Source: a phage. From it: a DNA stretch of 64,000 bases. The position numbers and the translations under genes were made by a program. Under the pieces are notes generated by a model that saw only the letters and a list, made by a program, of their open reading frames with translations, ran no database searches and was not told the origin of the DNA. Positions 784 to 61,356 of this stretch are shown piece by piece (within the stretch, counting starts at the first letter, position 1; each line of letters opens with the position of its first letter). The stretch is from sequence record OZ335961.1; one strand, given 5' to 3'.

Positions 784-936
784 TCAATTAGTTGACTTTA
801 CTATAATATCATCAGACGCTTGATTTGTAAACTGGTCTGTGTTATTTTCTTCAAAAATTTTTTCTACGAATTCCTTGAACGACTCACGTTCCTGAGCTAC
901 ATTATGCTCGATTACCTTTTCAAGATTATGACTCAT
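784..936 (-). CDS. small hypothetical protein (50 aa)
   Basis: ATG overlaps arn stop region; below the 60 aa track cut-off, read by hand. Confidence 0.35.
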   Translation of the reverse strand: MSHNLEKVIEHNVAQERESFKEFVEKIFEENNTDQFTNQASDDIIVKSTN

Positions 937-2590: not shown

Positions 2591-3226
2591 TCACAGTTCA
2601 GATGCTACGGTGATTACTGCTTCAATGTTTTCTGCCGAGCGTTTAATGTCAAGATACACATTACCGTTTTTAGCGATTTTACATGACATTCCAATATCAG
2701 TAAATTTCTGAATATGATGTTCCATCATTTTGTATCCAAAAATTCGCATATTTCCGTTGTTGTTAATTTCAAAATTGCGAATTCCGTGAGTGCGTTTTTC
2801 TAAAATAGCAAGATAGTTACTACGGTAAGTTTCAACTTTTTTAAGAACAAATCCATTTTCATCTAAAAGTTTTAACATGAGGTCTTTATCTTCTTCCATA
2901 TCGGAAGTAATCTCACGAGCTTTACGAGTTGCTCGTTTTTTCAGTAGTTCAGGAGCATTTTCCTGCGCGTATAAAGTTGCTGCATTTGAAATAATATCCT
3001 GAGCTTCACCTGTAATGATTAATCCATCACCAGATTTCTCCACCAGGCCTTTTTTAATCAATACCCCAATATTACTATTAACTACTGCGTTACCTAAATC
3101 TGGATGCACCTCACGAACTTCTGCAGCTGTAATGAAATCTTTCTTAGCAATGGTAATTAAAATCGCAGCAGTTTTTTCATTCAGAACATCGTTAGAAGCT
3201 TTGATGATGTAAGTTACTTTAGACAT
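2591..3226 (-). CDS. motA: MotA, activator of middle transcription
   Basis: 211 aa, recognised as T4 MotA; early promoter directly upstream. Confidence 0.9.
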   Translation of the reverse strand: MSKVTYIIKASNDVLNEKTAAILITIAKKDFITAAEVREVHPDLGNAVVNSNIGVLIKKGLVEKSGDGLIITGEAQDIISNAATLYAQENAPELLKKRATRKAREITSDMEEDKDLMLKLLDENGFVLKKVETYRSNYLAILEKRTHGIRNFEINNNGNMRIFGYKMMEHHIQKFTDIGMSCKIAKNGNVYLDIKRSAENIEAVITVASEL

Positions 3227-3267
3227 TTTCTAATCTCCGTAATTCTGTATCAGTAGTTGATAGTTGT

Positions 3268-3297
3268 ATAGTACCACAGTATGCTTTGGTTGTAAAC
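3268..3297 (-). promoter_or_regulatory. T4-type early promoter
   Basis: minus strand TTTACA -17 nt- TGGTACTAT, leader with GGAG before motA ATG. Confidence 0.7.
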
Positions 3298-3322
3298 CGT
3301 TTTGTGAAAAAATTTTTGAAAT

Positions 3323-3350
3323 AAAAAAAGGGAGAGCCGAGGCTCTCCCT
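3323..3350 (-). terminator. intrinsic terminator hairpin
   Basis: GC-rich inverted repeat gggagagcc/ggctctccc followed on minus strand by T7 run. Confidence 0.7.
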
Positions 3351-3354
3351 AAAA

Positions 3355-3504
3355 TTACTGCATGACTGTGATAACTGTCATGATAACACGTTGAATTCCG
3401 AACGCAAGAAGACCTCCTGCTACGGCAGGAACAACACCTAAACCCGCCAGTAAAATGCTACCAGATACTAATGCAGCGCTTGTAATACCAATGAATGGAC
3501 TCAT
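3355..3504 (-). CDS. small membrane protein (49 aa)
   Basis: ATGA overlap with gp52 stop; hydrophobic; hand-read. Confidence 0.45.
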   Translation of the reverse strand: MSPFIGITSAALVSGSILLAGLGVVPAVAGGLLAFGIQRVIMTVITVMQ

Positions 3505-4829
3505 TTGATTTCCTCTAAATCTTTAGTGTATTCTGTAACTACATCAGTAGTTTTCCAATATTCGTTTTCTTCTTTTTTGGCTTTAGCTTCTTCAGCAAGT
3601 TTTTTTGCTTCGTCAGAAGTCATATGAAAAATATTCATTCCAACTAGTTTATCAACATAAGAAGAATACATATCAATTTTAGAAAGTTCTTCTGTCAGTT
3701 CTTTGCGAGTTTTACCTTGTACAACAATTTCACCTGAAATTACTTTCTTAATGAAATGCGCCTTGGCAAAGGCTAAACGAAATGCTGATTCAGTTTCTTT
3801 TATTTTGTTATCAATTCGTTTTTGGACATAAGTTTTACGAACTTCAACGAAGTCTTTGATTAAATCAACTACGTTATCGTAAACTTGTAGCTTTCCTTTC
3901 TCATTAATAACGGTGATATTCTGGGAACGACGCTCAATCAACCCGAAGTCTTTCATAATTTTCGCGTGCCGTTCTTCTTCGTTATCACTCAAAGAGTATT
4001 CTTTACGGAATTTAACTTTGAATCCAAAACCATGCTCACCACAAGCATCATCCCACGTAATGAAGCCTTTATCTTCAAGCGGGTCTAAAATTTTGCTCAC
4101 GTAAGTTTCACGATCATACTTATATGGAATCTCAGTGATATTCATTTGAGTTCGTGAAGTAAACTTGTACGTTCCACGAATTTCATATTGACCATCAATT
4201 TCAACGACTTCACCACGAAATTCTGGGAATTCTACCTTCGGTTTAGTTACTTTCTTTCCTTGAAGAGCTTGCAATACAGCTTTCTTGACAGAAGAAACAC
4301 TATGAGGAAGAATGTAAGTTGCATAACCAGTTGCAATACCGGAAACACCATTAAGAAGAACAGTAGGAATAATAGGCAAATAGAAAGCAGGCGGAATGTG
4401 TTCTTTATCTTGATGTACCGGAGCATATTCAGTATCTTTATATACGTTATAGAAATTTTTACTTACACGAGCAAAAATATAACGACTTGCCGCTGCTTTT
4501 TGAACGGTACGAGAACCAAAGTTTCCTTGACCATCTAACAAAGGAAAGTTATTATTCCAAGTGTTAGCCATCAAAGCGCCCGCGTCTTGTGCAGAGTTTT
4601 CACCATGATGATATCCAAGGTCCGCTACACCACCTGCAATAGAAGCGAGTTTGTGAAACTTATCTTTATTTCCTCGTGCCAAATCAAGAGCTCGAGCAAT
4701 AACAAATCGTTGAACTGGCTTAAATCCATCAATCATATTTGGGATAGCACGATTTTCAACCGTGTACATAGCATAAGCCAATGCTTCATTATCAATGATA
4801 CTTTTTAAATCGCGATTATTCAGTTGCAT
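3501..4829 (-). CDS. 52: DNA topoisomerase II medium subunit (GyrA-like)
   Basis: 442 aa, recognised as T4 gp52. Confidence 0.92.
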   Translation of the reverse strand: MQLNNRDLKSIIDNEALAYAMYTVENRAIPNMIDGFKPVQRFVIARALDLARGNKDKFHKLASIAGGVADLGYHHGENSAQDAGALMANTWNNNFPLLDGQGNFGSRTVQKAAASRYIFARVSKNFYNVYKDTEYAPVHQDKEHIPPAFYLPIIPTVLLNGVSGIATGYATYILPHSVSSVKKAVLQALQGKKVTKPKVEFPEFRGEVVEIDGQYEIRGTYKFTSRTQMNITEIPYKYDRETYVSKILDPLEDKGFITWDDACGEHGFGFKVKFRKEYSLSDNEEERHAKIMKDFGLIERRSQNITVINEKGKLQVYDNVVDLIKDFVEVRKTYVQKRIDNKIKETESAFRLAFAKAHFIKKVISGEIVVQGKTRKELTEELSKIDMYSSYVDKLVGMNIFHMTSDEAKKLAEEAKAKKEENEYWKTTDVVTEYTKDLEEIK

Positions 4830-6378: not shown

Positions 6379-6406
6379 TTTCTGTTCCTCCGTAGTTGAT
6401 AGGGTA

Positions 6407-6436
6407 ATAATACCACAGAGGAACAGTCTTGTAAAC
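6407..6436 (-). promoter_or_regulatory. T4-type early promoter
   Basis: TTTACA -17- TGGTATTAT on minus strand. Confidence 0.65.
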
Positions 6437-6894: not shown

Positions 6895-7097
6895 TAATCC
6901 GCTAAAAGATCGACGATTGTATCACGAAGACATTTATTCGCAATACGTTTAAGAGCAATTTCAGTTTCTGGAGCATTTTGAATAATCATCGAATTCAATT
7001 CAGCCTCAGCAAACTGAAGTTCTTTAACTAATTCAGCTTTATATTTTCCTTGCCCTTTCTTAGCTTTTGCTCGTTTTAATTCAGCCGTAGTAAACAT
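6891..7097 (-). CDS. hypothetical protein (68 aa)
   Basis: true ATG after conserved leader GGAGAATAAA; track extension translates the promoter. Confidence 0.5.
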   Translation of the reverse strand: MFTTAELKRAKAKKGQGKYKAELVKELQFAEAELNSMIIQNAPETEIALKRIANKCLRDTIVDLLADY

Positions 7098-7131
7098 TTT
7101 ATTCTCCAAATCCGTATCAGTTGATAGTTGT

Positions 7132-7161
7132 ATAGTACCACAGTCCTTGTGGTATGTAAAC
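7132..7161 (-). promoter_or_regulatory. T4-type early promoter with spacer dyad
   Basis: TTTACA -17- TGGTACTAT; spacer has CCACAAGGACTGTGG dyad. Confidence 0.7.
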
Positions 7162-7177
7162 CGTTTTGTGAAAATTT

Positions 7178-7735
7178 TTAAATGGAAAGATACCATCCGT
7201 TGTAGTTGCTTTTTCTTACAACCTTACGAAGGTCTTCTCTATCACCGATGAACTTCGGAGTGTACTGGATGACACCTGGATGAATTTCTTTAGTGTTGAA
7301 TATAATTATACAGTCAGCGACCTGATGATTCAGAATGGGCCCTAGATTTATTCCAGAACCATATGGATACTCTCCGCTGCATCCTGTTGTTACAGAAATC
7401 CAACGTGAGTCAGTTTGATGTGTCTTAACTTCTACACGAATCCCGCAGTATCTTGGATGCGCCAATACATCCCATGCGTATGTATACGGGTCATTAACAT
7501 CCTCTTGGCCTTTGTTAACATACCCGCTTAGCCAATCTGCTACAAAAAACTCTGCGTACACCGCGATACGACATCTTTCGATAACTTCTGCTTTATCCTG
7601 GTTCGGGTTTTGTTTTAAAGAGTATCTTGTTGTATCAGCAATTTTGACCTTCATTTCACTAGTCAAGTCACTGTTCGATAGGGTAAATGTCGGAATCTGA
7701 AATAGTCTCTGTAAACCCGGATTCGTTTTCTGCAT
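7178..7735 (-). CDS. denB: endonuclease IV (DenB)
   Basis: 185 aa; size and position between ndd and rIIB. Confidence 0.75.
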   Translation of the reverse strand: MQKTNPGLQRLFQIPTFTLSNSDLTSEMKVKIADTTRYSLKQNPNQDKAEVIERCRIAVYAEFFVADWLSGYVNKGQEDVNDPYTYAWDVLAHPRYCGIRVEVKTHQTDSRWISVTTGCSGEYPYGSGINLGPILNHQVADCIIIFNTKEIHPGVIQYTPKFIGDREDLRKVVRKSNYNGWYLSI

Positions 7736-7997: not shown

Positions 7998-8016
7998 AAT
8001 TTTTCCTTAAAACAAA

Positions 8017-8031
8017 AGGGCCGAAGCCCCT
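8017..8031 (-). terminator. UUCG-tetraloop hairpin followed by U-rich tract
   Basis: minus strand GGGGCUUCGGCCC then UUUUGUUUU. Confidence 0.55.
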
Positions 8032-8035
8032 TATT

Positions 8036-11625: not shown

Positions 11626-11655
11626 ATTATACCACATCCTTGTGGTAAAGTAAAC
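11626..11655 (-). promoter_or_regulatory. T4-type early promoter
   Basis: TTTACT -17- TGGTATAAT; spacer dyad CCACAAGGATGTGG. Confidence 0.7.
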
Positions 11656-13472
11656 TACTGGCTCATCCATTCTTTACGAAGGTCAGCATTATCCCCCATG
11701 AGCATTTCAAAAAGCTCTTTCCAGTTCTCAGGAAGTTTAACAACATCATATACCGGATTTTGAATCATCTCACGATATTCAGATTTTTCCAAAGAGCCAA
11801 GTCCCTTAATATAACGGATGCTATGTTTAGGTAGAGCATCTTTGGCACTCTCATATTCAGCGACTGTATAAAACCATTCTTGTTTTTTACCGACCTGAGC
11901 GATGATTACAGGAGTTTTGACGAAGCGAATTCTTCCTTGTTCAAACAGTTCTGGCCAATTACTAAAAAATCCGAGCAGAGAAGGATAAATGCTTCCTAGA
12001 CCATCATGGTCAGCATCAGTCATAATAGCAATATTATGATAATTCAAGTTTTCAGCCTTTTCACCAAGAACTAATCCAGTGATTGCGCAAATATCAAACA
12101 GTTCTTTGTTTTTAAGCATATCAGCATATGACATACCCCAACTGTTGAGAACTTTACCACGTAATGGATAACCACCATGAAGTTCTTTATCACGAACATC
12201 AATAAGATATCCGATAGCAGAATCACCCTCAGTCAAGAAAAGAGTAGTGTCAGCGTCTTTACCACAAAGATTCGCTTTAATATGTTTATGAACTTTAGCT
12301 TTAGAAGCCTTTTTAGCTGCTTTAGTTTCTGCTGCTTTTTCTGCTGCCAATTTACGAGCCAAGGCAGCTTCAATAATTGGCATTAAAATTGCTTCATTAT
12401 TTAAAATAGCGCGTGAAATCTTTTTAGCATCAAGCTGAATATGACTACGAATTTCACCAAATGGAGAAGTCAAACGCTCTTTAGTCTGAGAATCAAATCG
12501 CATGTTTTTCATATCACGAACAAACATAACGATAGTCAAACATTCTTTAACACGTGCTTTAGTTACATCAATTTTGAATTTACGTTTGATTTGTGGAATA
12601 AGGTCTTCACAAATATCATCCATAACACAATCAATGTGATGGCCACCATTCTTAGTATGAATGTTATTGACGTATGTTAATTGACGAAAACCATCCGGTG
12701 AACGACCAACCGCAATAGAACAATTTTCTTGTTCTTGAACAATAGCATGCTCATCATATTGGCGTGCATATTTCTTAAAATTACCCTGAACCTTTTTACC
12801 ATTAAAGGTAAATTGAATATCAGGATAAACTACTGCAAGTGTCTGGAGACGATCCAGTGTAATGTCAAGATAAACTTGAGATAGCTCATTAGTTTCAAAT
12901 GACATAAAATCAGGAATGAAAGTAACGCGAGTTCCTTTCCATTTTCCAGGAATATCTTCCCATGATTTATTTTCCATGCCATTTGAACAACGAACTACAA
13001 TATTATTTTGACCGTCGCCAGTTTCACCGACAAACATCACAGAAAAAATGTTAGTTAAACTAGAACCAACACCGTTCATACCGCCAGTGACACGTTCTTT
13101 ATCATCACCGAAATTACCACCTGCTTTTGGAATAGTCCAGGCAGCAACAGGACCAGGAATTTCTTCACCAGTAGGTGTTTTAACCATCGCTTGTGGAATA
13201 CCACGACCGTTATCTTCAACTGTTACTTGATTGTTTTTAATAGTAACATTAATTTTATTTGCGAATTTAAACTTAGTACGAATACCTTCATCTACCGAGT
13301 TATCGATAATTTCATCAATAAGCTTAACAAGACCAGGTACATACTGAACACTTTCCCATTTACCAAACAGAAAGCGCTCATGCATTTCATTAGCGGAAGA
13401 GCCAATGTACATGCCGCTACGCTTTTTGATATGTTCAATATCGCTCAGAATTTTAATTTCATTCTTAATCAT
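11655..13472 (-). CDS. 39: DNA topoisomerase II large subunit (GyrB-like), uninterrupted
   Basis: 605 aa from ATG with GAGGA SD; N-terminus MIKNEIKILSDIEHIKKRSGMYIGS recognised. Confidence 0.9.
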   Translation of the reverse strand: MIKNEIKILSDIEHIKKRSGMYIGSSANEMHERFLFGKWESVQYVPGLVKLIDEIIDNSVDEGIRTKFKFANKINVTIKNNQVTVEDNGRGIPQAMVKTPTGEEIPGPVAAWTIPKAGGNFGDDKERVTGGMNGVGSSLTNIFSVMFVGETGDGQNNIVVRCSNGMENKSWEDIPGKWKGTRVTFIPDFMSFETNELSQVYLDITLDRLQTLAVVYPDIQFTFNGKKVQGNFKKYARQYDEHAIVQEQENCSIAVGRSPDGFRQLTYVNNIHTKNGGHHIDCVMDDICEDLIPQIKRKFKIDVTKARVKECLTIVMFVRDMKNMRFDSQTKERLTSPFGEIRSHIQLDAKKISRAILNNEAILMPIIEAALARKLAAEKAAETKAAKKASKAKVHKHIKANLCGKDADTTLFLTEGDSAIGYLIDVRDKELHGGYPLRGKVLNSWGMSYADMLKNKELFDICAITGLVLGEKAENLNYHNIAIMTDADHDGLGSIYPSLLGFFSNWPELFEQGRIRFVKTPVIIAQVGKKQEWFYTVAEYESAKDALPKHSIRYIKGLGSLEKSEYREMIQNPVYDVVKLPENWKELFEMLMGDNADLRKEWMSQ

Positions 13473-13526: not shown

Positions 13527-13540
13527 AGGCCCGAAGGCCT
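13527..13540 (-). other. UUCG-tetraloop RNA hairpin
   Basis: aggcccgaaggcct upstream of gene 39. Confidence 0.5.
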
Positions 13541-14994: not shown

Positions 14995-15093
14995 TACAAT
15001 TTCCTCATTAATTGAACATTGGAGCGATGCGTTTCAGAAGAGTGGCAGCACCTTTGGCAAATTTTCCATTTTATTCTCCAAGTTATTTTCTGT

Positions 15094-15136
15094 ATCAGTA
15101 GTTGATATTGATATAGTACCATAATCAACTACTGAT
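15094..15136. repeat. perfect 13 bp inverted repeat in a degenerate promoter cassette
   Basis: atcagtagttgat ... atcaactactgat flanking 17 bp. Confidence 0.6.
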
Positions 15137-15166
15137 GTATATAGTTTTATGAAAAAATTTTAAACT

Positions 15167-15655: not shown

Positions 15656-15699
15656 AGTTATCTCTCACTTGTTAAAAAGATTTTATACTCCACGGGACC

Positions 15700-15729
15700 A
15701 TTATACTCTGGTCCCAAGAGTTTGTAAAC
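15700..15729 (-). promoter_or_regulatory. T4-type early promoter with stem-loop
   Basis: TTTACA -17- TATAAT; dyad GGGACCA/TGGTCCC encloses -10. Confidence 0.7.
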
Positions 15730-15731: not shown

Positions 15732-16274
15732 TTAATTCAAAATAGCTACCACTGCACTACGAGGTACTACGCTAAAATCACCTGCATGAACAACGTTCAG
15801 AAGTTCAACGCCATCTTCAATCCACTGGTCTGTTACCCAACCGCAGACCGAAATAAATGGGGTCTTAATAGCTACAGCACGAGTTAGAAGGTCAGTAGGA
15901 TCGCATTCTTGGAAGAGGATAAGCTCTGCTTCAAAGACTATAGTTTTAATTACTTCATCATTATCTAAGCGTTGTGCTCGAATCACGTAAGCTTTATTCT
16001 TATCATGCCAATTACTTTTTGAAAAACTTTTAACCACAAACTCACCTTCACCAAAAACACTAGTCAATGCTTTATAACCCAAACTTAATTCAGTAGTTTT
16101 AATTTCAGTTTCAACCAGTTTGTAGGTTTTGCCAATTTCGATGGTCCGAGCAGTCATAAAGGTTTCCTTAATTTCTAATGGTTTAACAAGAGTGCCGTAC
16201 ATGCTTGCTATATCCATATCAAATATTTTATCTATAGGATTTGGGGTGTATTCAGGATTATAATTAAATTTCAT
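15732..16274 (-). CDS. hypothetical protein (180 aa) sharing C-terminal domain with MotB-like protein
   Basis: shared motif TDQW(V/I)EDGV.L.NVV. Confidence 0.55.
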   Translation of the reverse strand: MKFNYNPEYTPNPIDKIFDMDIASMYGTLVKPLEIKETFMTARTIEIGKTYKLVETEIKTTELSLGYKALTSVFGEGEFVVKSFSKSNWHDKNKAYVIRAQRLDNDEVIKTIVFEAELILFQECDPTDLLTRAVAIKTPFISVCGWVTDQWIEDGVELLNVVHAGDFSVVPRSAVVAILN

Positions 16275-16777: not shown

Positions 16778-16804
16778 TTTATTATCCTCAGTAGCTATGG
16801 TGTT

Positions 16805-16834
16805 ATAATACCACAACTAACCGAGGAAGTAAAC
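16805..16834 (-). promoter_or_regulatory. T4-type early promoter
   Basis: TTTACT -17- TGGTATTAT. Confidence 0.65.
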
Positions 16835-16840
16835 AACTTT

Positions 16841-17524
16841 TTATCGTTTTGTTTGAAGAGACAGAGGATCGCACTCTTCCTCTGACGGAGCATCTTCAAG
16901 ACCCATAGCATATCGCAAAGCATACTTCATCATCAGGATGTCTTTTGCACAGTCATGAATAGAATCATGTGCAACGAATCCATCTAAAGTTCCCTTTGGA
17001 AGAGGACACGTGGTCATATCACGAACAAGCAGAAGTGCTTCAATTCTGGTACGAATATCACGCTGATTCCAGAATTTACATGGTTCTAACTTAAATGTGT
17101 CAAGTTCATTCTCGGAAACGCCGTTAAGACGTTGAATATCGCGAATGAGATCGACTAAAATTGGAAAATCAAACGACATTCCACGGCACCAGCCTTGAGA
17201 TTTCCAAGGATCGATATTATGCGCATTGATGTAATCATTAAATTTTGCAATACCATCGATAGTGCTTACATCTTCATCTGATGGCGCAATATTTTTTCGA
17301 GCTTCAGGAGATTGATTTTTCCACCATTCGATAGTGCTTTTAGTAAAAAGACGTTGTCCTTTTTGGCTTTTTAAATCAAATTTGATTTTAATGCCACGCG
17401 AAACTAATTCATCAAATGTTTCAACTACTTCTGGATTAGGGTCAAAGGCAATAACAGCCAAATCAATAACAGCTGCCTTTTCACCGCTTCCCATTGTTTC
17501 AAAATCTATAATAAAATCAAACAT
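16841..17524 (-). CDS. dexA: exonuclease A (DEDD family)
   Basis: 227 aa; recognised. Confidence 0.85.
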   Translation of the reverse strand: MFDFIIDFETMGSGEKAAVIDLAVIAFDPNPEVVETFDELVSRGIKIKFDLKSQKGQRLFTKSTIEWWKNQSPEARKNIAPSDEDVSTIDGIAKFNDYINAHNIDPWKSQGWCRGMSFDFPILVDLIRDIQRLNGVSENELDTFKLEPCKFWNQRDIRTRIEALLLVRDMTTCPLPKGTLDGFVAHDSIHDCAKDILMMKYALRYAMGLEDAPSEEECDPLSLQTKR

Positions 17525-17799
17525 TAAATTTTCCTCGCTAAATCGCGAATTTGACCTACAGTATAATCTTGGATATAAACTTTATTAATGGGCTCATCAA
17601 TAAATTTTGCCATAGATTCAATATCTTTTTGTATCTCTTCAAGACTGTATACTATCTTTAAAGCTTTTTCGCGAATAGTAACATTATCAGGTCCTGAATT
17701 TTCTTGAATGACAGCTTTAACGTTTGTCATAAGAGATTTAAACTGATGCAAACTTAATTCAATCATTAATAACCGCCTTATAAAGATGGCTAATTTCAC
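17524..17799 (-). CDS. hypothetical protein (91 aa)
   Basis: ORF. Confidence 0.5.
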   Translation of the reverse strand: MKLAIFIRRLLMIELSLHQFKSLMTNVKAVIQENSGPDNVTIREKALKIVYSLEEIQKDIESMAKFIDEPINKVYIQDYTVGQIRDLARKI

Positions 17800-20431: not shown

Positions 20432-20461
20432 ACTATAACATTTTTACTTCAGCTTGTAAAC
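20432..20461 (-). promoter_or_regulatory. T4-type early promoter
   Basis: TTTACA -17- TATAGT. Confidence 0.6.
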
Positions 20462-21120: not shown

Positions 21121-21740
21121 TCAACTACCTCAATATCATACACTTTAAATGTTCCAAATGAATCGTGTAATTTTTCTTTTGAAATAGAAGTTATTTTATA
21201 CTTTCCAATTGGAATCATCCATTCTTGTTCACGTACAATCATCATTAAGTTATCAGTACGTTCTGAATCTAATCCATCAGTATCTTCATATGTATACTTA
21301 AACTCAGTATTAGGAGAAGAAAGTATAATATCGCTGATATGGTCAGAATAATTAAAAGCTTTATCAGTTTTTAAGCGAAATATTATTTCAGTGGAATATT
21401 CAACATAAGAAAAACCGCATGCTGTGTGCAAACTAGTAGTAAATGAATCTACTCTATTCGTTGAAAACACTTCTCCAACTTGTAAATCTTTAATGAGTTC
21501 TTTTGTCGATTTTGATATACCACGATATAGCTGATAAGGCGATTTAGTTAAATGCTTTTTAACGATTTTATTCAACTGCCGATGAAGGGCTTCATTCTTT
21601 TTGGCTTCCATACATTGCCAAAGAACTGACTGTTCGAAGTCAGTAAATTTTTCACAGACCTTTTTATACATATCATATTGAAAATCGACACTTTCAGCTT
21701 TTATAGATAACTGTTCAACATCTGCGAGATTAATAATCAT
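21117..21740 (-). CDS. modB: ADP-ribosyltransferase ModB
   Basis: 207 aa from ATG after GGAGG; LYRGIS, EQEWMIP. Confidence 0.8.
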   Translation of the reverse strand: MIINLADVEQLSIKAESVDFQYDMYKKVCEKFTDFEQSVLWQCMEAKKNEALHRQLNKIVKKHLTKSPYQLYRGISKSTKELIKDLQVGEVFSTNRVDSFTTSLHTACGFSYVEYSTEIIFRLKTDKAFNYSDHISDIILSSPNTEFKYTYEDTDGLDSERTDNLMMIVREQEWMIPIGKYKITSISKEKLHDSFGTFKVYDIEVVE

Positions 21741-21766
21741 GATAGCCTCCATATACTTCAGAAGCT

Positions 21767-21796
21767 ATCATATCATTGTTAGGAAGGAAAGTAAAC
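21767..21796 (-). promoter_or_regulatory. T4-type early promoter
   Basis: TTTACT -17- TATGAT. Confidence 0.55.
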
Positions 21797-23883: not shown

Positions 23884-23913
23884 ATTATACCATACTCATT
23901 GTGGAAAGTAAAC
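23884..23913 (-). promoter_or_regulatory. T4-type early promoter
   Basis: TTTACT -17- TATAAT. Confidence 0.65.
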
Positions 23914-23923: not shown

Positions 23924-23947
23924 AAAAAAGGACTCCCGAAGGAGTCC
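23924..23947 (-). terminator. intrinsic terminator
   Basis: hairpin ggactcc-cgaa-ggagtcc followed on minus strand by U6. Confidence 0.7.
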
Positions 23948-23953
23948 CTGAAT

Positions 23954-24229: not shown

Positions 24230-24237
24230 TATTTATA
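24230..24237 (-). promoter_or_regulatory. T4 late promoter
   Basis: minus strand TATAAATA upstream of soc ATG. Confidence 0.6.
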
Positions 24238-24271
24238 ATAAATTCTCACAGCTTTTAAGCTGTCGTTTATA

Positions 24272-24790
24272 TTAATAGCCTCGGTCTTGACGAGCGAAGT
24301 TTTCGGCATTTTTTAGATAATAAAGTTTAAAGATTTCTTCAGCCGTAAGACCGAGACCTTGGAACATGTTCAGAACAAAATGAAGAATATCAATCATTTC
24401 GAATTTAATTTCCAACTGATCTTGTGGAGATAAGTCAGTAATCAGAGTTTCACGGCGTTCACCATGTTGAGATTTCCACGGCTTCCATACAGCAGATGCA
24501 TCTTTTTCGCCATTGCTCATACCACCAAGAGAAGTCAGAAGTTCGCGGAATTCATCATCAATATAATCTTTTTGATTACGCAGCCAATCAACAACTTCAC
24601 CTGCAGTAGCCAAATCATCAGGATGACGGTTATATTCAGGTTTATCTTTAGCTAAACGAACCTGCAGAGATTTCTGCATATCAAGCATAACTTGCAGCGG
24701 GTCTTTTTCATCACCGAGAATATCCCAGTATTCATTTTGAGCTTTATCAGCGCCTTCAATCAGTTGACTACATTCGTTGAAATGTGGCAT
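24272..24790 (-). CDS. 56: dCTPase/dUTPase (MazG-like)
   Basis: 172 aa; recognised as T4 gp56. Confidence 0.85.
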   Translation of the reverse strand: MPHFNECSQLIEGADKAQNEYWDILGDEKDPLQVMLDMQKSLQVRLAKDKPEYNRHPDDLATAGEVVDWLRNQKDYIDDEFRELLTSLGGMSNGEKDASAVWKPWKSQHGERRETLITDLSPQDQLEIKFEMIDILHFVLNMFQGLGLTAEEIFKLYYLKNAENFARQDRGY

Positions 24791-24791: not shown

Positions 24792-25442
24792 TTATTTTTC
24801 CTTTCTTATGAAGTTTTCTATCATATGTCTATAGCAGATATTAGGATAACCTGCCTTGACAGCTATTTTATTAAATTTTGTGCGCTTAGGTCTATTATTA
24901 TAAACCCATAATTCATAAAGCGCATCATAACTATTCCATATTTCTCCTCGCCTAGGATTTGGTAAACCATATCGAGGCGAATTTTTACCGCTAAATCTTC
25001 CTTTTCGGGCTTTACTCATATTAGTCTTGGCTTCATCGGATATAATTTTACCTTTATGAGCTAGACGCATTTTGGCTTTAGTTTCTTCTGGAGTCTTTTT
25101 GCCTTTAATCCATGACGGCTTACCATATCTAGGATTATTTTCACCCGAGAAAAGAACAGAGTTTTGGATTTTAAGGGTTTCTATTAATCTACTTGTTAAT
25201 TTAACACCTTTATTATATCGCATTAAATTTACAGCATAATGCAATCCTCTCACATCTGGATATATTTTAGTTAATAATCTATGAGCTATAAAATGCTCAC
25301 GCGCAGTTAACTCAACAAGATTGTTTTTGCCATCTGCTCCTCCCATACATCTAGGAATTATATGATGGCGTTCTTTATATCCGCCAAGATGCCGGCATTT
25401 AGCTTTTGTAATTAAAGCCGAGTAAATTTTTTGGTAATTCAC
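24792..25442 (-). mobile_element. free-standing HNH homing endonuclease gene (216 aa)
   Basis: HNH motif ERHHIIPRCMGG...N...EH..H, two NPRYG repeats and NUMOD3-like KTPEETKAKM. Confidence 0.8.
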
Positions 25443-27854: not shown

Positions 27855-27884
27855 ATAGTATCTCAATTTCCAACAAAAGTAAAC
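27855..27884 (-). promoter_or_regulatory. T4-type early promoter
   Basis: TTTACT -17- TACTAT. Confidence 0.6.
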
Positions 27885-28138
27885 TATTTTATTTCCTCAA
27901 GTTCGTTAATCAATAAAAGTTCTCTGACGCTAAAAACAAAGAAAAATGTGTTCCCATCAACCAGAGCATGACCGCTAATAGAACACCCTCTGCGGAATTT
28001 AGAAACTTCACAATCTAGAACTGTAAAGGGTTTTAATCCTATGACTTTAGCTATGCGTCTATTCAGTTCACAACCACTTGCGAATTTTTCCAAATCTTCT
28101 TCTGATTTAAACTGATATTCTCTATTAACTAGCATCAT
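27884..28138 (-). CDS. hypothetical protein (84 aa)
   Basis: ORF. Confidence 0.5.
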   Translation of the reverse strand: MMLVNREYQFKSEEDLEKFASGCELNRRIAKVIGLKPFTVLDCEVSKFRRGCSISGHALVDGNTFFFVFSVRELLLINELEEIK

Positions 28139-28169
28139 TTTCTTTTCTCCGCGATTAGCTGATAGAATT

Positions 28170-28199
28170 ACTATAACACAACTCTATCAGCTTGTAAAC
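28170..28199 (-). promoter_or_regulatory. T4-type early promoter
   Basis: TTTACA -17- TATAGT. Confidence 0.6.
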
Positions 28200-28201
28200 T
28201 A

Positions 28202-28486
28202 CTATTTTACTAGCATCAATAACTGTTTCTCTAACTTAATAATTTTACGAAAGTATCTTTTGCATTGACGAATCTGCCGCTTCGTAGGGCGCACAGCAAA
28301 CTTAATAAATTCCACTCGACCAAATGGAGGACTTTCTTCTGCTGGAATATCTAACACCAATTCCCACGTATCTGCAACAAGTGCTTTGAATTGAGTATTT
28401 TTCCTGACATTATACGGAGTAGGTTTAAATAAAACAATATGCATATTACCCTCGGCAATCCACTTCACATACTTTCTTGTCATCAA
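28202..28486 (-). CDS. hypothetical protein (94 aa)
   Basis: ORF. Confidence 0.5.
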   Translation of the reverse strand: MMTRKYVKWIAEGNMHIVLFKPTPYNVRKNTQFKALVADTWELVLDIPAEESPPFGRVEFIKFAVRPTKRQIRQCKRYFRKIIKLEKQLLMLVK

Positions 28487-28628: not shown

Positions 28629-28657
28629 AACAATCTCCTCATTTAACCAACAAGACT

Positions 28658-28687
28658 ACTATACCATAGTCTTGTCGGCTTGTAAAC
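28658..28687 (-). promoter_or_regulatory. T4-type early promoter with stem-loop
   Basis: TTTACA -17- TATAGT; dyad CAAGACTA/TAGTCTTG encloses -10. Confidence 0.65.
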
Positions 28688-30468: not shown

Positions 30469-31642
30469 TAAATTCTTCCATATCACTTAACTGATCTAGG
30501 TCAGTTTCTAAATCAGCTGCTGATTTACTTTTACTTTCTGGAGATTTAAATTTTTCAACCTTTGAGTTAATCAATTCATCAACTTCAGCTTCAACAATTT
30601 CATTACTATCAATAGCACCTAACTGATAAGCACGTTTAATAGCATCTCGGAATGGTTGATGCTTAAATAAAGGACCCCAGAATGTAGTGCAATTGGTATC
30701 TTTTGCACGCCAAGATTTTTCTTCGCGAATCATCTCGCCAGTTTCTTCGTCAAGAAATTCACGAGCATACCAGCCATTTTTAGGTTTTACCACAAATCCT
30801 AATTCAAGAGCCATATCTAACAATCCAGAATAAGGATCGATGCCACCGTCAAATTTAACATCAATAAAGAATTTACTTTTTTCTTTAACTGTACGAGATT
30901 TTTCTACATTTAAAACAAATTGATACCCCTGAAGATCGGAACCATCTTTAATCTGGCGCTTACCGATAATGAATACAGTATCAGCCGAATACATTACGCC
31001 TGTACCACCTGTCATCACGGTTTTACTAAACATTTCAATTGTTTCAATTGTATGGTTAACCGCAACACATGGAATGTTTTTAATACTAAAATAAGGAGTA
31101 ACAATACGGAATAATGACTTCAGTGATTTAGCACGAGTCATATCTGCCACAGATTTTTCATTCAAGGCATCTTCCGTTTCTTTCTTAGAAGCCATATTAC
31201 CGATTGAGTCGATGAATACAATAACTTTTTCACCACGCTCAATAGCTTCAAGCTGATTCACCATATCAATTTTCAGCTGTTCAACTGACTGGATTGGTGT
31301 ATGAATTACTCGTTCCGGGTCAACTCCCATGGATCGCAAATAAGCTGGAGTAATACCAAATTCGCTATCATAGAATAGACATACCGCGTCAGGATATTTG
31401 TTCAAATACGCCGCAACCATAGTCAAAGACATATTTGATTTAAAGTGTTTAGAAGGACCTGCAAAAATGGTTAAACCAGACTGCATACCACCATCAATCG
31501 CACCAGAAATAGCGATATTAAGCATTGGGATTTTTGTACGAATTACATCCTTTTCATTAAAGAATTTAGATGTAGTCAGTTCAGCAGTCATTTTAGAAGT
31601 GGAAGCTTTAATCAAACGGGATTTTAAATCTGCAATAGACAT
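30461..31642 (-). CDS. uvsX: UvsX recombinase (RecA-like)
   Basis: 393 aa; recognised. Confidence 0.92.
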   Translation of the reverse strand: MSIADLKSRLIKASTSKMTAELTTSKFFNEKDVIRTKIPMLNIAISGAIDGGMQSGLTIFAGPSKHFKSNMSLTMVAAYLNKYPDAVCLFYDSEFGITPAYLRSMGVDPERVIHTPIQSVEQLKIDMVNQLEAIERGEKVIVFIDSIGNMASKKETEDALNEKSVADMTRAKSLKSLFRIVTPYFSIKNIPCVAVNHTIETIEMFSKTVMTGGTGVMYSADTVFIIGKRQIKDGSDLQGYQFVLNVEKSRTVKEKSKFFIDVKFDGGIDPYSGLLDMALELGFVVKPKNGWYAREFLDEETGEMIREEKSWRAKDTNCTTFWGPLFKHQPFRDAIKRAYQLGAIDSNEIVEAEVDELINSKVEKFKSPESKSKSAADLETDLDQLSDMEEFNE

Positions 31643-31719
31643 TCATTTTTTCCATAGGCATCATTATATTTTCCTCACTGGTTAAAGATAGAGTAATTAT
31701 AACACAATAAATTTAGGCA

Positions 31720-32568
31720 TTAATCAACTGCTATTGGATGAATAGCATTAAACTTATGAAATGCTTCTGATTTTTCTTTGCGCGAAACACACATACGAAG
31801 AACTTTTAATGGCTCGTCTTCTTCACCCAACGATTTTCTCTTTTCAATATTCGATGTTTTCCAACGAGCTTGCTCTGGAAACTCTCTATTGATTTGCTCA
31901 AGAGCTCTATTATGTTTTGAATTACTACGAATTGAACTACATCCGCCAGGAGCTTGCGCTTTTCCGGATACAACCAGATATTTGAACAAGGCCAAATGTG
32001 GATAACCTTGATTAATTAAATTGAGAAATGCATACATATCTTCGCATAAATCAATTTTTCCATACCCAATTTGTTCTGTTGTAAGTTTCCCAAGGTCATA
32101 CCATGTATTCGTGAATCCATATGAATTTTCACGATAATTACCCCAAGATGAAGTAATTTTAAAAATAGGTAAACGAGCATGACCGTGATAATACCCACAA
32201 TCCATGGCATCTTCAACGTATTGAATCAATTCATAGAACTGTTCACGAGTTAATTGATTAATTTTATCTACGCAGCGACGATCATCTTTCTTTCGCATTG
32301 AACTCATACGAATAGTAGTATCATCATCAATCATCCAAATTCGTTGACCTGCATACATATCAGTAATTGCTTTACGAGTACCAGCAATTCCGTTAACATC
32401 ATCAGGAATAGTTATAATTTTAGCTCTAGACCCGTAAGCGTCATAATAAGCTTTTTCTTCGTGTTCACGTACTACAATATGAGGTTCATAATCAGTCGGA
32501 AACATGTCAAGGGCAGAAACTGCCCCTACGCGTTGATAGCTTGGAATTACGAATTGAATCATTTCCAT
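31720..32568 (-). CDS. putative DNA glycosyltransferase, GT-A-like (282 aa)
   Basis: DxD-type motif WMIDDDTT; between uvsX and gene 42. Confidence 0.55.
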   Translation of the reverse strand: MEMIQFVIPSYQRVGAVSALDMFPTDYEPHIVVREHEEKAYYDAYGSRAKIITIPDDVNGIAGTRKAITDMYAGQRIWMIDDDTTIRMSSMRKKDDRRCVDKINQLTREQFYELIQYVEDAMDCGYYHGHARLPIFKITSSWGNYRENSYGFTNTWYDLGKLTTEQIGYGKIDLCEDMYAFLNLINQGYPHLALFKYLVVSGKAQAPGGCSSIRSNSKHNRALEQINREFPEQARWKTSNIEKRKSLGEEDEPLKVLRMCVSRKEKSEAFHKFNAIHPIAVD

Positions 32569-33299
32569 TCACCGTTATAATCTTTTTTCGCAATATGAGT
32601 TTCGCCAGTTTTCCACCAATGGTCAACCAAATAAAAATGACGGGAATACACATGAAGGCTCCCGACATTCCATATAATGGAACCTGCTTTATACTGACGA
32701 GTTGAATCACCTGCATTCAAATCAGATACTAATTTATCTAGTACGTATTTTTGCCATGCATAATCATTACGGAATCCGAAGACTACGTCATTTGAACGCA
32801 TGCTTACTACTGCATTGACTTTCTTATCACGAATCAGGTACTGTACTGTATTCGTACACATGAAATCTGACATACCATCTTTATTGTAGTCAAACTGCAT
32901 GGATGGACGAGTATAAATCATGATACCACGCCGAGAATCAGGGTTTTGACCAAGTTCAGCTAAACACATATCATACTGGGCATAGTTATCTTCTGACCAG
33001 ATAGCCCAACCATAATTCGAGTTAATTTCGCCTTTAGAAGATGCTACCTGTTGCCAAATCTTCGGTGTTTCACCCGGAATATCTTTAACAAACAGACTTT
33101 GAGACTTATACCATTCAAGTTCACGTTGAATGTATTCATCATTAAGAGCGCCAAAAATAAAAGGTTCATCTGCTACAAATGATGCACCAATAATTTCAAT
33201 AGTTTTAACACCAGTTTTATCAATTACGAAATCTTTTTCCTTTAATGCAAGACCCAAATCAAGACGGATTTCTTCAACTGTCATATAATCGTTAATCAT
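32559..33299 (-). CDS. 42: dCMP hydroxymethylase
   Basis: 246 aa; recognised. Confidence 0.92.
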   Translation of the reverse strand: MINDYMTVEEIRLDLGLALKEKDFVIDKTGVKTIEIIGASFVADEPFIFGALNDEYIQRELEWYKSQSLFVKDIPGETPKIWQQVASSKGEINSNYGWAIWSEDNYAQYDMCLAELGQNPDSRRGIMIYTRPSMQFDYNKDGMSDFMCTNTVQYLIRDKKVNAVVSMRSNDVVFGFRNDYAWQKYVLDKLVSDLNAGDSTRQYKAGSIIWNVGSLHVYSRHFYLVDHWWKTGETHIAKKDYNGEWK

Positions 33300-34102: not shown

Positions 34103-34360
34103 TCAAATACAAGTAGTAATTACTCCAGTAGTGCTTACACAGGTATTACCTAATTGAACACCAAGCGTTCCATTAGTATTCATATGAAGATTATCATCAA
34201 TTTTTGTTGATACTTTACCATTCATGTGAATAACAGTATTAGATTCAATCACATTCTGAGTGTCATTTTCAATATCAATAAATGGAACAGCTGCTAATGC
34301 AACTAGAACAACTGCTAATGCAACTAAACACGCTGCTAAACAACCATAAACAGTTTTCAT
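34103..34360 (-). CDS. small membrane-anchored protein (85 aa)
   Basis: ATG MKTVYGC after conserved leader; track extension translates promoter. Confidence 0.5.
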   Translation of the reverse strand: MKTVYGCLAACLVALAVVLVALAAVPFIDIENDTQNVIESNTVIHMNGKVSTKIDDNLHMNTNGTLGVQLGNTCVSTTGVITTCI

Positions 34361-34394
34361 TTTATTCTCCAAATCCGTATCAGTTGATAGTTGT

Positions 34395-34424
34395 ATAGTA
34401 CCATGGAAGAACAGAGATGTAAAC
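34395..34424 (-). promoter_or_regulatory. T4-type early promoter
   Basis: TTTACA -17- TGGTACTAT. Confidence 0.7.
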
Positions 34425-34506
34425 CGTTTTGTGAAAAAATTTTTAATGAATTTACAGGACCTAGAATCATCTATTTTTCCTAAGTATAGATTTATATTAC
34501 TTGTAT

Positions 34507-34528
34507 GAAAAAGGGACCCGGAGGTCCC
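34507..34528 (-). terminator. intrinsic terminator
   Basis: hairpin gggacc-cgga-ggtccc followed on minus strand by U-run. Confidence 0.65.
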
Positions 34529-34541
34529 TAGATTTATTCTA

Positions 34542-37296: not shown

Positions 37297-37315
37297 AAGG
37301 GGCCGAAGCCCCTTG
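37297..37315 (-). other. UUCG-tetraloop RNA hairpin
   Basis: aaggggccgaagcccctt overlapping regA stop. Confidence 0.5.
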
Positions 37316-39211: not shown

Positions 39212-39246
39212 AATTTCCTCATTCAAGTTTTAGTGTAAATTATAAA

Positions 39247-39258
39247 GGGCCGAAGCCC
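39247..39258 (-). other. UUCG-tetraloop RNA hairpin
   Basis: gggccgaagccc between 45 and 44. Confidence 0.5.
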
Positions 39259-39262
39259 TTTA

Positions 39263-42777: not shown

Positions 42778-43793
42778 TGTGTTGCCTCTACATATAACTG
42801 ATTTGCATATTGAATAAGTGCTTCGCGGTCAGAATCAGTGATGTCTGGAATTGCATTAATGTATTCTTCCATCAACATCTGAAGAGATTGAACTTCAACT
42901 TCTTCACTATCATCTGACTCGACAGAGTTATCAATCTTTGACACAACTCGTAATGAATGCACAACTTTTTCTAGTTCAGATTCGAACTTCGTTAGATTTT
43001 TGTCTACTTCAGTTACTATAACACGCACTGATAGATTTGTAAAATCTTTATAGTCAATTTTTCCCTTAAATGGATACTGAATTCGACGATGCCAGGTGGT
43101 GTTGTTTGGAATAAATTCCATTCGTTCTGTTTCTGTATCAAACATCCAGAACCCGCGAGGGTCATTCTCGTCACCTGCAGTTAGTGTCCATGGTGTCCCA
43201 ATATATCTGACGTTAGCAGCCTCAGAGATAGTATGGAAGTGACCAGACCACACTTCCTTATAAGTCTTAAGGAAATCAGGTTCAAGACCGTGAGATTTCA
43301 TTCCTTTATAAAAATAAAATCCATTCAGTTCCCAGTGACCAACACAAAAAGAAGCAGATGAAGTTTTGATGTGTTCAAGAATTTCACCAGTATTTTCTTC
43401 GCACATCCAAGGAATTAAATCAATCAAACATCCGTCAAAATCTACTGTAGTAGGCTTATCATATACTTTAACATTAGGATATTTAGCCAAAAGCTCAGTA
43501 GAAGCATTTGGAGTTAAAGTATTTTTAAAGTGCATATCATGGTTTCCTACAACAGTATGTAGGGTAATACCAGCATCATCAAGCATTTGAACTATTTCAC
43601 GGGCGAATTCCATAGTTTTATGCGTGATTGCTTTTCGCACATCAAAAATATCGCCGTATTGAATCCATGCAGTAATTCCATTTTTCTTAGAATATTCTAT
43701 TGCTTGTTTAATTCCATCCAACTGAATGGATTGAACCCACTCATCATCGGCTTTAACACCTAAATGCCAATCACCTAAATTTAAAATTTTCAT
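42774..43793 (-). CDS. 47: recombination nuclease subunit (Mre11-like)
   Basis: 339 aa; phosphoesterase motifs; recognised. Confidence 0.92.
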   Translation of the reverse strand: MKILNLGDWHLGVKADDEWVQSIQLDGIKQAIEYSKKNGITAWIQYGDIFDVRKAITHKTMEFAREIVQMLDDAGITLHTVVGNHDMHFKNTLTPNASTELLAKYPNVKVYDKPTTVDFDGCLIDLIPWMCEENTGEILEHIKTSSASFCVGHWELNGFYFYKGMKSHGLEPDFLKTYKEVWSGHFHTISEAANVRYIGTPWTLTAGDENDPRGFWMFDTETERMEFIPNNTTWHRRIQYPFKGKIDYKDFTNLSVRVIVTEVDKNLTKFESELEKVVHSLRVVSKIDNSVESDDSEEVEVQSLQMLMEEYINAIPDITDSDREALIQYANQLYVEATQ

Positions 43794-43956
43794 ATATCAA
43801 GAACCGTCATTGAAATGCAAAATAAAATTATTGAAATAAATCCATCTGGAGTGCTAAAGAACCCAATCCAACACGCTCTAGTGAATAGATAAAATGCGAG
43901 AAAAAGTATCACATATCCAAGAAATATCATTATATCAAACTCCGTATAAAGCTAAA

Positions 43957-47946: not shown

Positions 47947-48240
47947 TCAGCTGTAACGATAGCACTCGTTTGATTTACGCTTAGCAACTCGTTGAGAAGT
48001 ATTATAATCAAAATCATCATCAATGTAAACTGATTTTTTCAACTTTCTTACTTCACCACGTAATTGACGATTTAGCTCATCTTTAACTTCTGAATCAATG
48101 CCTTTCATTCTACGCCATTTATCTGAGCGAAAAATGTTTTCAACCATATCTTTATAACTTACACCATCAGGAGCTTTACGCTTTCCGAAATAGTCATAAT
48201 CACGAACTTTCAAGTCTTTACGACGATACGTTTTACCCAT
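47947..48240 (-). CDS. hypothetical basic protein (97 aa)
   Basis: ATG MGKTYRRKDL; track start is GTG. Confidence 0.45.
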   Translation of the reverse strand: MGKTYRRKDLKVRDYDYFGKRKAPDGVSYKDMVENIFRSDKWRRMKGIDSEVKDELNRQLRGEVRKLKKSVYIDDDFDYNTSQRVAKRKSNECYRYS

Positions 48241-48439: not shown

Positions 48440-48469
48440 ATAATACCACAGTTTGAACTTCCTGTAAAC
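48440..48469 (-). promoter_or_regulatory. T4-type early promoter
   Basis: TTTACA -17- TGGTATTAT. Confidence 0.65.
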
Positions 48470-48542: not shown

Positions 48543-48564
48543 GAAAGAAAGGCCCAGAGGGCCC
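48543..48564 (-). terminator. terminator-like hairpin after nrdH-like gene
   Basis: ggccc-agag-ggccc followed on minus strand by UUUCUUUC. Confidence 0.45.
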
Positions 48565-56376: not shown

Positions 56377-56406
56377 ATTATACCACATCCTTGTGGCGAA
56401 GTAAAC
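56377..56406 (-). promoter_or_regulatory. T4-type early promoter
   Basis: TTTACT -17- TGGTATAAT; spacer dyad CCACAAGGATGTGG. Confidence 0.7.
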
Positions 56407-59331: not shown

Positions 59332-59359
59332 TTTGTGTTCCTCCGTAGTTGATAGTTGT

Positions 59360-59389
59360 ATAGTACCACAGAGGAACAGTCTTGTAAAC
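59360..59389 (-). promoter_or_regulatory. T4-type early promoter
   Basis: TTTACA -17- TGGTACTAT. Confidence 0.7.
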
Positions 59390-60763: not shown

Positions 60764-60799
60764 TTTATTCTCCAATTTCACATTTGTTTTGATAGGGTA

Positions 60800-60829
60800 A
60801 TAATATCACACTACTACCCTACTGTAAAC
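60800..60829 (-). promoter_or_regulatory. T4-type early promoter with stem-loop
   Basis: TTTACA -17- TATTAT; dyad TAGGGTA/TACCCTA encloses -10. Confidence 0.65.
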
Positions 60830-61276: not shown

Positions 61277-61306
61277 ATAGTACCATAAAGCTTTATGCTT
61301 GTAAAC
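61277..61306 (-). promoter_or_regulatory. T4-type early promoter
   Basis: TTTACA -17- TACTAT. Confidence 0.7.
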
Positions 61307-61330: not shown

Positions 61331-61354
61331 AAAAAAGGGAGCCCGAAGGCTCCC
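61331..61354 (-). terminator. intrinsic terminator
   Basis: hairpin gggagcc-cgaa-ggctccc followed on minus strand by U6. Confidence 0.7.
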
Positions 61355-61356
61355 TA

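Follow-up and report, generated by a model that had tools for sequence, protein, structure and literature searches.

A 64,000-nucleotide (nt) stretch of phage DNA (sequence record OZ335961.1, one strand, 5' to 3'; here denoted the window) very probably carries 22 early promoters of the phage T4 class, a strong type read by the host polymerase; some of the cassettes have an upstream terminator, and about nine others may be insulated by a predicted hairpin between the promoter spacer and the leader. Finding early promoters in a close relative of T4 is a re-identification, useful for annotation and not new biology: most deposited genomes carry no promoter features, and the RefSeq and GenBank records of T4 are both without them. 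The complementarity between the spacer and the leader is the part that is worth following up. By megablast, the window belongs to a Tequatrovirus, a T4-like coliphage (best match phage EcNP1, 96.8% identity over 20 kb). Its genes, which span asiA to mobD.2, are all minus-strand genes, and the window runs colinear with T4 from ~160.4 kb across the origin of the genome up to 57.9 kb.

Promoter motifs and their T4 orthologues

An initial annotation of the window had noticed at least 18 related sites on the minus strand, read them as early promoters of the T4 type and named a motif search as a check. All 18 that it listed are present. Over the whole window the pattern GTTTAC-N18-TAnnnT had 22 matches on the minus strand and none on the plus strand, far above shuffled sequence (300 dinucleotide shuffles, mean 0.42, maximum 3), and adding the TGn element left 17 matches versus 0.03 expected from dinucleotide shuffles. 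A position weight matrix that began 25 nt ahead of the -35 and ended 6 nt beyond the -10, with the 95% shuffle maximum as cut-off, also gave 22 sites on the minus strand and none on the plus strand. These are the 18 sites together with 803, 15113, 43015 and 48001, which the initial annotation had missed (sites are denoted by their low coordinate, the end of the -10 hexamer, the high end being GTTTAC). Two matches found with the regular expression only, 52667 and 54367, fail the matrix and were dropped. A generic sigma-70 consensus scan of the window showed no enrichment (70 matches versus 80 expected), therefore the specific T4 consensus is what matters.

The -35 element GTTTAC(A/T), a 17-bp spacer counted from TTTACW and a -10 element TAnnAT are exact in 20 of the 22 sites, the exceptions being TTTTAC at 43015 and ATATAC at 15113; the T4 copy of 15113 has lost its -35 too. 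The extended -10 (TGn) is found in 18 sites. The 28 nt upstream of the promoters (-65 to -38) are 75% A+T, compared with 65% window-wide, and 19 sites are intergenic, with a Shine-Dalgarno sequence (SD) and ATG located 20-61 nt downstream. The 17-nt spacing given in the initial annotation holds if the elements are taken as TTTACW and TAYTAT; from GTTTACW to TGGTAYTAT the distance is 14 nt, and the literal pattern with N17 between these two is three bases out of register and yields only register-shifted matches.

Positional T4 orthologues were found for 20 of the 22 sites; the remaining two, 28170 and 60800, both lie in modules that T4 lacks. T4 early-promoter starts are published at 27,044 (Pe26.4), 41,225 (Pe40.4), 35,662 (Pe35.3) and 57,954 (PMC6024815). 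We independently found T4 -10 hexamers at 27051, 41232, 35669 and 57961, the published starts being exactly 7 nt downstream of each, and the window orthologues of Pe26.4, Pe40.4 and Pe35.3 are 34395, 48001 and 43015, respectively. Early promoters of T4 consist of a UP element, a -35, a TGn and a -10, and are read by the unmodified host polymerase (Hinton 2010, PMC2988021). The MotA box TGCTT was present in the -35 to -22 region of none of the 22 sites, and a middle-promoter reading was rejected since no site has this box. Together, the data support the initial reading of the sites as T4-type early promoters, a feature that is already known.

Eleven minus-strand matches to a MotA box plus -10 were detected, all away from the 22 sites. 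These middle-promoter-like sites include 9327, 25476, 39979 and 40608, with seven more, and several of them lie where T4 PrIIB2, P45 and P45.2 would be expected (T4 middle-promoter starts from Hinton 2010, PMC2988021).

Hairpins that straddle the -10 element

We folded 23 segments of 75 nt, each extending from GTTTAC to 45 nt past the -10. Nine of them gave a fold with a z-score below -2, in which the spacer supplies the 5' arm, the leader supplies the 3' arm and the loop holds the -10 (Table 1). The five dyads of the initial annotation (15694-15715, 28651-28674, 60793-60821, 11631-11646 and 7137-7151) are all correctly placed, and additional dyads are found at 6407, 59360, 16805, 28170, 15113 and 21767. 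Since transcripts of the promoter itself begin ~7 nt past the -10, only RNA that comes from upstream can form the hairpin. No terminator is predicted between any of the hairpin-type promoters and the next early promoter upstream of it. An Rfam search of the window returned no matches.

The pairing is specific to each promoter. In the window, spacers pair with their own leader at a mean of -10.3 kcal/mol, compared with -6.9 kcal/mol for leaders of other sites (permutation p < 5e-5), and the same test gave p=5e-5 for T4 48-72 kb, p=0.014 for RB69 and p=0.013 for JS98. When scored strand-symmetrically, the arms hold 14 G-T mismatches and 2 A-C mismatches, and folding of the sense strand is more favourable than that of the antisense strand, by 3.7 kcal/mol. 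The G-T excess and the better folding of the sense strand favour an RNA of the sense strand over a DNA palindrome.

The hairpin at the motB.2 promoter, which buries the SD, is found in four genera, each with different arm sequences: TCCTCGGTTAG…CTACTGAGGA in Tequatrovirus, TTCTCCTCTGGTT…AACCAGAGGAGAA in Mosigvirus RB69, TTCTCCTCATG…CATGAGGAGAA in Dhakavirus and ATGATGACCTC…GGAGGTCATCAT in Kanagawavirus. Hence, the design upstream of motB.2 persists in at least four Tevenvirinae genera although its arm sequences have turned over. The same behaviour is seen for the motB and modB promoters in JS98 and RB69. In a cross-genus MAFFT alignment of the motB.2 promoters the stems fall in different registers, and column-wise pair counting was not used for this reason; each genus is argued from its own helix. 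At the dmd hairpin, the differences between the window and T4 preserve pairing through G-U, and two fully compensatory changes are seen in the T4 paralogue at 57961. IMG/VR returned only seven motB loci, all too close or too distant to inform.

Predicted masking of ribosome-binding sites

For each gene we computed the cost of opening the ribosome-binding site (RBS), taken to begin 14 nt upstream of the AUG and to end 4 nt beyond the A of the AUG, in the read-through RNA and in the promoter's own RNA. For ndd.4 the cost is 16.6 kcal/mol in the read-through RNA versus 1.5 in its own RNA (a difference, ddG, of 15.1), for nrdC.8 15.9 versus 2.5 (13.4), for modB 15.5 versus 3.1 (12.4) and for motB.2 15.1 versus 5.0 (10.1). 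Ranked by RBS occlusion among 90 genes, nrdC.8 is second, and nrdC.8, modB and motB.2 together take places two to four; the textbook masked genes 49 and soc, which served as positive control, rank fifth and sixth. Only a few sites show the effect: mean RBS occlusion of early-promoter genes showed no excess over that of other genes (Mann-Whitney p=0.63).

In the context of the long transcript, strongly occluded RBSs are also seen where no early promoter is nearby, with opening costs given in brackets, at gene 55 (46666; 16.2 kcal/mol), ndd.6 (6625; 11.8 kcal/mol) and ac (5125; 10.8 kcal/mol).

Terminators upstream of the promoters

The initial annotation had four promoters immediately preceded by a terminator. 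All four terminators are real and located where the annotation had placed them, each directly after a stop codon, with AGGGA…TCCCT stems followed by a U-run and a free energy of -13 to -18 kcal/mol; "immediately" is loose for 34395, where the -35 is 88 nt away. The annotation had also matched the sites to promoter-early stem-loop (PeSL) modules. In T4 and PST a PeSL consists of TTTACW-N17-TAYWAT, an AT-rich upstream region, a stem-loop of the form AGnA-loop-TCnT close by on the upstream side and, downstream, an SD with a start codon (Comeau 2014, PMC4122927). The consensus with its AT-rich region, SD and start codon is found at the sites of the window; the upstream stem-loop is found at 3268, 23884, 34395 and 61277, weakly at 48440, and the remaining 17 lack it. 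The four cassettes with a terminator fit exactly and, with 48440 as a weak fifth, are PeSLs in the published sense, so that membership holds for this subset only. The dyads, whether within the spacer or surrounding the -10, are another structure than the PeSL stem-loop and fall outside the PeSL definition.

Separate from the promoter cassettes, we noticed a family of short GGGC-UUCG-GCCC hairpins between genes; they have C(UUCG)G tetraloops and mostly a weak U-tail or none, and lie on the minus strand at 8015-8032, 13527-13540, 37299-37312, 39245-39260, 43956-43969, 45223-45242 and 47595-47608.

Cassette repeats and differences from T4

Homology among the cassette copies reaches well past the hexamers. 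A family of 94-nt repeats (3222-3315, 7086-7179, 34349-34442 and 61231-61324), three copies of which are 80-84% identical, shares the UP region, -35, -10, leader, SD and ATG, with the spacer as the variable part. A 67-nt repeat pair at 6374 and 59327 is 90% identical. As an observation on its own, ~46 nt comprising the -10 and leader (34359-34404 and 61241-61287) match Salmonella phage STML-198 at 94-96% with dissimilar flanks, hence the cassette leader occurs in a phage that is otherwise unlike these two query regions.

The initial annotation had stated that the sites flank accessory open reading frames (ORFs). Two modules of small ORFs that are absent from T4, 27891-28221 and 60775-61234, are indeed bounded by cassettes at both ends, the latter with a 21-nt SD-ATG repeat at each junction. 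The module at 60.8-61.2 kb is present in 137 of 544 related genomes and that at 34.1-34.35 kb in 318 of 521; the ORFs of both belong to phage families of unknown function. Compared with T4 the window has 18 gaps. Setting aside those due to homing endonucleases or introns, ten are left, of which four have an end in a cassette and two have both ends there. Breakpoints are enriched at cassettes against a uniform null (p=0.006). A role of the cassettes in ORF shuffling is consistent with these data and not demonstrated by them; that recombination caused the cassette-bounded insertions and deletions is inferred.

Several other differences from T4 were noticed. The large subunit of the topoisomerase is a single 605-amino-acid (aa) ORF (11655-13472); its division between genes 39 and 60 as in T4, along with the translational-bypass segment, 60.1 and mobA (T4 2793-3911), is absent from the window. 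T4 segF, segA, mobB, mobC, the nrdD intron with I-TevII, and mobD are missing or replaced; the corresponding homing-endonuclease or intron gaps are at 24237-24309, 31630-32577, 45163-45188, 49657-49677, 50951-50956 and 62371-63334. A 216-aa ORF on the minus strand (24795-25442), which carries a NUMOD3 motif and is 34% identical to MobD, occupies the T4 dam region (T4 16798-17725, replaced) and thus constitutes a different homing-endonuclease-like insertion. A 282-aa ORF on the minus strand (31723-32568) replaces T4 segA and the beta-glucosyltransferase gene; its match to Pfam TAGT (TET-associated glycosyltransferase, E=1e-9) points to another kind of DNA sugar-modification enzyme. At the T4 motB.1 position, a second MotB-like ORF (15735-16202, minus) matches Pfam motB and is 56% identical to MotB.

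Proposed mechanism and alternatives

According to the explanation that we favour, the unmodified sigma-70 RNA polymerase of E. coli would read the 22 sites on DNA entry, while infection is in its first minute, from promoters composed of an A/T-rich UP region, a -35 GTTTAC(A/T), a 17-bp spacer, a TGn-extended -10 (TGGTAYWAT), a start ~7 nt downstream and a leader of 20-60 nt that bears an SD and is followed by a start codon. Incoming transcription would be dealt with in two ways. In four to five cassettes, an intrinsic terminator 15-88 nt upstream would make a self-contained unit of terminator, promoter and leader, the published PeSL. In about nine cassettes that have no terminator, the spacer is complementary to the cassette's own leader; the read-through RNA would fold into a hairpin of 10-17 bp whose loop contains the -10, and the promoter's own RNA would not contain the 5' arm. 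The ribosome-binding site itself forms the 3' arm at ndd.4, motB.2, modB and nrdC.8, where only promoter-proximal, immediate-early transcripts would likely be translated. Being repeated (up to 94 nt at 80-90% identity), the cassettes would also serve as homology patches for gain and loss of small accessory ORFs.

The strength of this explanation differs between its parts. The motif with its strand bias and positions, the orthology to mapped T4 promoters, the terminators, the pairing of spacer with leader and the insertions and deletions bounded by cassettes are established from the sequence. That the hairpins affect translation has somewhat less than an even chance. We propose only tentatively, and a little less firmly, that a subset of T-even early promoters acts as an RNA switch, in which the spacer is an anti-leader or anti-SD arm that shuts the read-through RNA of early or middle promoters further upstream and leaves the promoter's own RNA open; such a switch would confine modB, motB.2, nrdC.8 and ndd.4 to the immediate-early window.

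Several observations weigh against parts of this explanation. Promoter activity in this particular phage is inferred from T4 orthology. Five of the nine hairpins (15113, 15700, 28170, 28658 and 60800) stop short of the SD, and RBS masking cannot be the role of these five because the SD is left uncovered. Terminator-type and hairpin-type promoters do not overlap in the window, with only marginal significance (p=0.049), and the T4 rI.-1 promoter carries both a terminator and a hairpin. After removal of orthologous duplicates the ratio of G-T to A-C mismatches falls to ~10:2 (p only ~0.04). Within Tequatrovirus (PST, T6, RB51, Maryam and EH2) the arms are almost invariant and classical covariation is weak, hence within-genus covariation is not usable. 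As for ORF shuffling, eight of the 18 gaps are the homing-endonuclease or intron differences, unrelated to cassettes, and against a gene-junction null the breakpoint enrichment is not significant (p=0.07 per breakpoint, 0.30 per event).

The straddling hairpins might instead act on the stability or processing of polycistronic early RNA, as 3' barriers of the upstream message, as 5' protective stems once the RNA has been cleaved or as shields of GGAG against RegB. This would accommodate the five hairpins that end upstream of the SD, and in the four of these whose start codon is correctly assigned (15113, 28170, 28658 and 60800) the RBS opening cost shifts by less than 5 kcal/mol; moreover, RegB cleaves GGAG in early SDs, and GGAG lies within three of the four SD-covering arms. 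We nevertheless consider this reading unlikely: the hairpins are followed by neither a U-run nor a known RNase motif, and the four strongest bury the whole SD and rank alongside the known masks of soc and 49.

Less probable still is that the dyads act as DNA, forming cruciforms or protein-binding palindromes on the -10, whether as recombination targets (a stem-loop of PeSL type or a substrate of endonuclease VII) or as operators for a repressor that turns early promoters off. Several of them are perfect palindromes (15113 in the window; ipII, ipIII and 57961 in T4), Arbiol 2010 (PMC2839356) speculates that PeSL stem-loops are targets of a DNA-binding protein and links comparable elements at the internal-protein (IP) loci of T-even phages to gene shuffling, and the mechanism of early-promoter shut-off is described in the literature as not understood. 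However, the arm sequences differ at every promoter, so that no single protein could recognise them, duplex DNA would show neither the 14:2 mismatch ratio nor the strand difference in folding, and in four cases the 3' arm coincides exactly with the SD. Finally, the lack of enrichment in the generic sigma-70 scan speaks for chance matches in A/T-rich DNA, yet this possibility, or that of MotA-dependent middle promoters, is already refuted by the shuffle statistics for the specific motif, found on the coding strand only, and by orthology to named early promoters with mapped starts, MotA-type matches being located elsewhere, and it has practically no chance of being correct.

If masking by the straddling hairpins is true, it would explain how genes in tandem, co-oriented, terminator-less early units keep separate schedules. 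Such a switch could take the place of a terminator in insulating an expression cassette, and the spacer used as an anti-SD would be a compact design rule for the insulation of synthetic cassettes. The masking hairpins merit an experimental test.

Features of individual sites

Table 1. Early promoters, straddling hairpins and terminators of the window (T4, position of the T4 orthologue; z, folding z-score)
Feature	Position	Strand	Gene downstream, or location	Details
Early promoter	803..832	-	asiA	inside asiA.1; T4 161182
Early promoter	3268..3297	-	motA	anchor site of the initial annotation; T4 163644
Early promoter	6407..6436	-	ndd.4	T4 166778
Early promoter	7132..7161	-	68-aa ORF absent from T4	small spacer hairpin CCACAAGGACTGTGG
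Early promoter	11626..11655	-	rIIA.1	spacer hairpin CCACAAGGATGTGG; T4 2429
Degenerate cassette	15113..15142	-	11-codon mini-ORF and cef	-35 ATATAC; TGGTACTAT intact
Early promoter	15700..15729	-	motB	T4 7186
Early promoter	16805..16834	-	motB.2	T4 8189
Early promoter	20432..20461	-	srd	T4 11822
Early promoter	21767..21796	-	modB	T4 13157
Early promoter	23884..23913	-	mrh.2	T4 15259
Early promoter	27855..27884	-	sp	T4 20080
Early promoter	28170..28199	-	84-aa goF-like ORF	within 329-bp module absent from T4
Early promoter	28658..28687	-	dmd	T4 20583
Early promoter	34395..34424	-	85-aa ORF absent from T4, then imm.1	Pe26.4 orthologue
Early promoter, weaker	43015..43044	-	inside gene 47	-35 TTTTAC; Pe35.3 orthologue
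Early promoter	48001..48030	-	inside 55.5	Pe40.4 orthologue
Early promoter	48440..48469	-	55.6	T4 41677; probably Pe41
Early promoter	56377..56406	-	nrdC.4	spacer hairpin CCACAAGGATGTGG; T4 50944
Early promoter	59360..59389	-	nrdC.8	T4 53914
Early promoter	60800..60829	-	nrdC.10	one end of 458-bp module absent from T4
Early promoter	61277..61306	-	two small ORFs absent from T4	spacer 12-bp palindrome ATAAAGCTTTAT; T4 55355
Hairpin straddling -10, 15 bp	6382..6426	-	ndd.4	5' arm in spacer, 3' arm covers SD GGAGG; z=-4.2
Hairpin straddling -10, 13-bp perfect arms	15094..15136	-	promoter 15113	z=-5.7
Hairpin straddling -10	15687..15721	-	motB	GGGACC/GGTCCC core; z=-4.4; JS98 counterpart with different arms
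Hairpin straddling -10, 17 bp	16785..16827	-	motB.2	3' arm covers SD GAGGA; z=-5.0; four genera
Hairpin from -10 into SD and AUG	21732..21777	-	modB	z=-2.5; RB69 and JS98 counterparts
Hairpin straddling -10, 14 bp	28157..28192	-	goF-like ORF	z=-2.4
Hairpin straddling -10, 15 bp	28645..28680	-	dmd	z=-4.3
Hairpin straddling -10, 14 bp	59336..59378	-	nrdC.8	3' arm covers SD; z=-5.5
Hairpin straddling -10, 10 bp	60792..60822	-	nrdC.10	TAGGGTA/TACCCTA; z=-3.3
Intrinsic terminator	3329..3350	-		AGGGAGAGC-CUCG-GCUCUCCCU and U7; 32 nt upstream of -35 of 3268
Intrinsic terminator	23928..23949	-	after soc	AGGGACUCC-UUCG-GGAGUCCUU (UUCG loop) and U-run; 15 nt upstream of -35 of 23884
Intrinsic terminator	34512..34529	-	after gene 43	AGGGACC-UCCG-GGUCCCU; 88 nt upstream of -35 of 34395
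Intrinsic terminator	61336..61355	-	after nrdC.11	AGGGAGCC-UUCG-GGCUCCCU (UUCG loop) and U-run; 30 nt upstream of -35 of 61277
Weak terminator-like hairpin	48550..48564	-		81 nt upstream of -35 of 48440

One small spacer hairpin, CCACAAGGA(C)TGTGG, is common to three otherwise unrelated early promoters (7137-7151, 11631-11646 and 56382-56396, minus strand), and the cores of 11626 and 56377 are 94% identical over 32 nt. The spacer of 61277 (61283-61300, minus) contains the perfect 12-bp palindrome listed in Table 1, centred on a HindIII site and identical in T4. On the 3' side of the degenerate cassette 15113 and upstream of cef we noticed a mini-ORF of 11 codons (15033-15068, minus; MENLPKVLPLF), which is kept in T4 (MENSLKVLILF) and annotated in neither of the two T4 records checked.

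Comparison with known systems

The promoters share with the early promoters of T4 (PMC2988021; PMC6024815) their consensus, downstream genes, genomic positions and a start 7 nt after the -10. The window differs in having two promoters (28170 and 60800) in modules absent from T4 and several that drive ORFs absent from T4. With PeSL cassettes (Arbiol 2010, PMC2839356; Comeau 2014, PMC4122927) they share the composite layout and the genome-wide copies that flank variable small ORFs, but the upstream stem-loop accompanies only four to five of the 22 promoters of the window, and the enrichment at insertion and deletion junctions is suggestive and not significant.

Elements that flank the IP genes of T-even phages may be of the same design as the straddling hairpins: Arbiol 2010 (PMC2839356), citing Repoila 1994, describes them as early promoters of T4 whose stem-loops are weaker, AT-rich and variable in size. 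Straddling palindromes of this kind are present at the ipII and ipIII promoters of T4. In that description such elements are given for IP loci only and are read as recombination sites.

RBS masks that span a promoter are known in T4 for e, soc, 49, I-TevI, I-TevII, I-TevIII and segB, with a late internal promoter as their common feature (PMC3014915, PMC2988022). In the literature searched we found no description of RBS masks at early promoters, and the hairpins described here are a plausible unreported variant of this known T4 control. As in the e, soc and 49 type of mask, the 5' arm lies upstream of the start of the internal promoter and the 3' arm over the SD or AUG, leaving only the short transcript open, and the computed masking energies equal those of soc and 49 in the same window. 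The internal promoter, in contrast, is late in the published cases and of the early class here. The logic would thus run the other way, with translation limited to immediate-early transcripts, and, if true, it would extend the classic translational control of T4 from late to immediate-early genes, as a mirror image of the e, soc and 49 switch.

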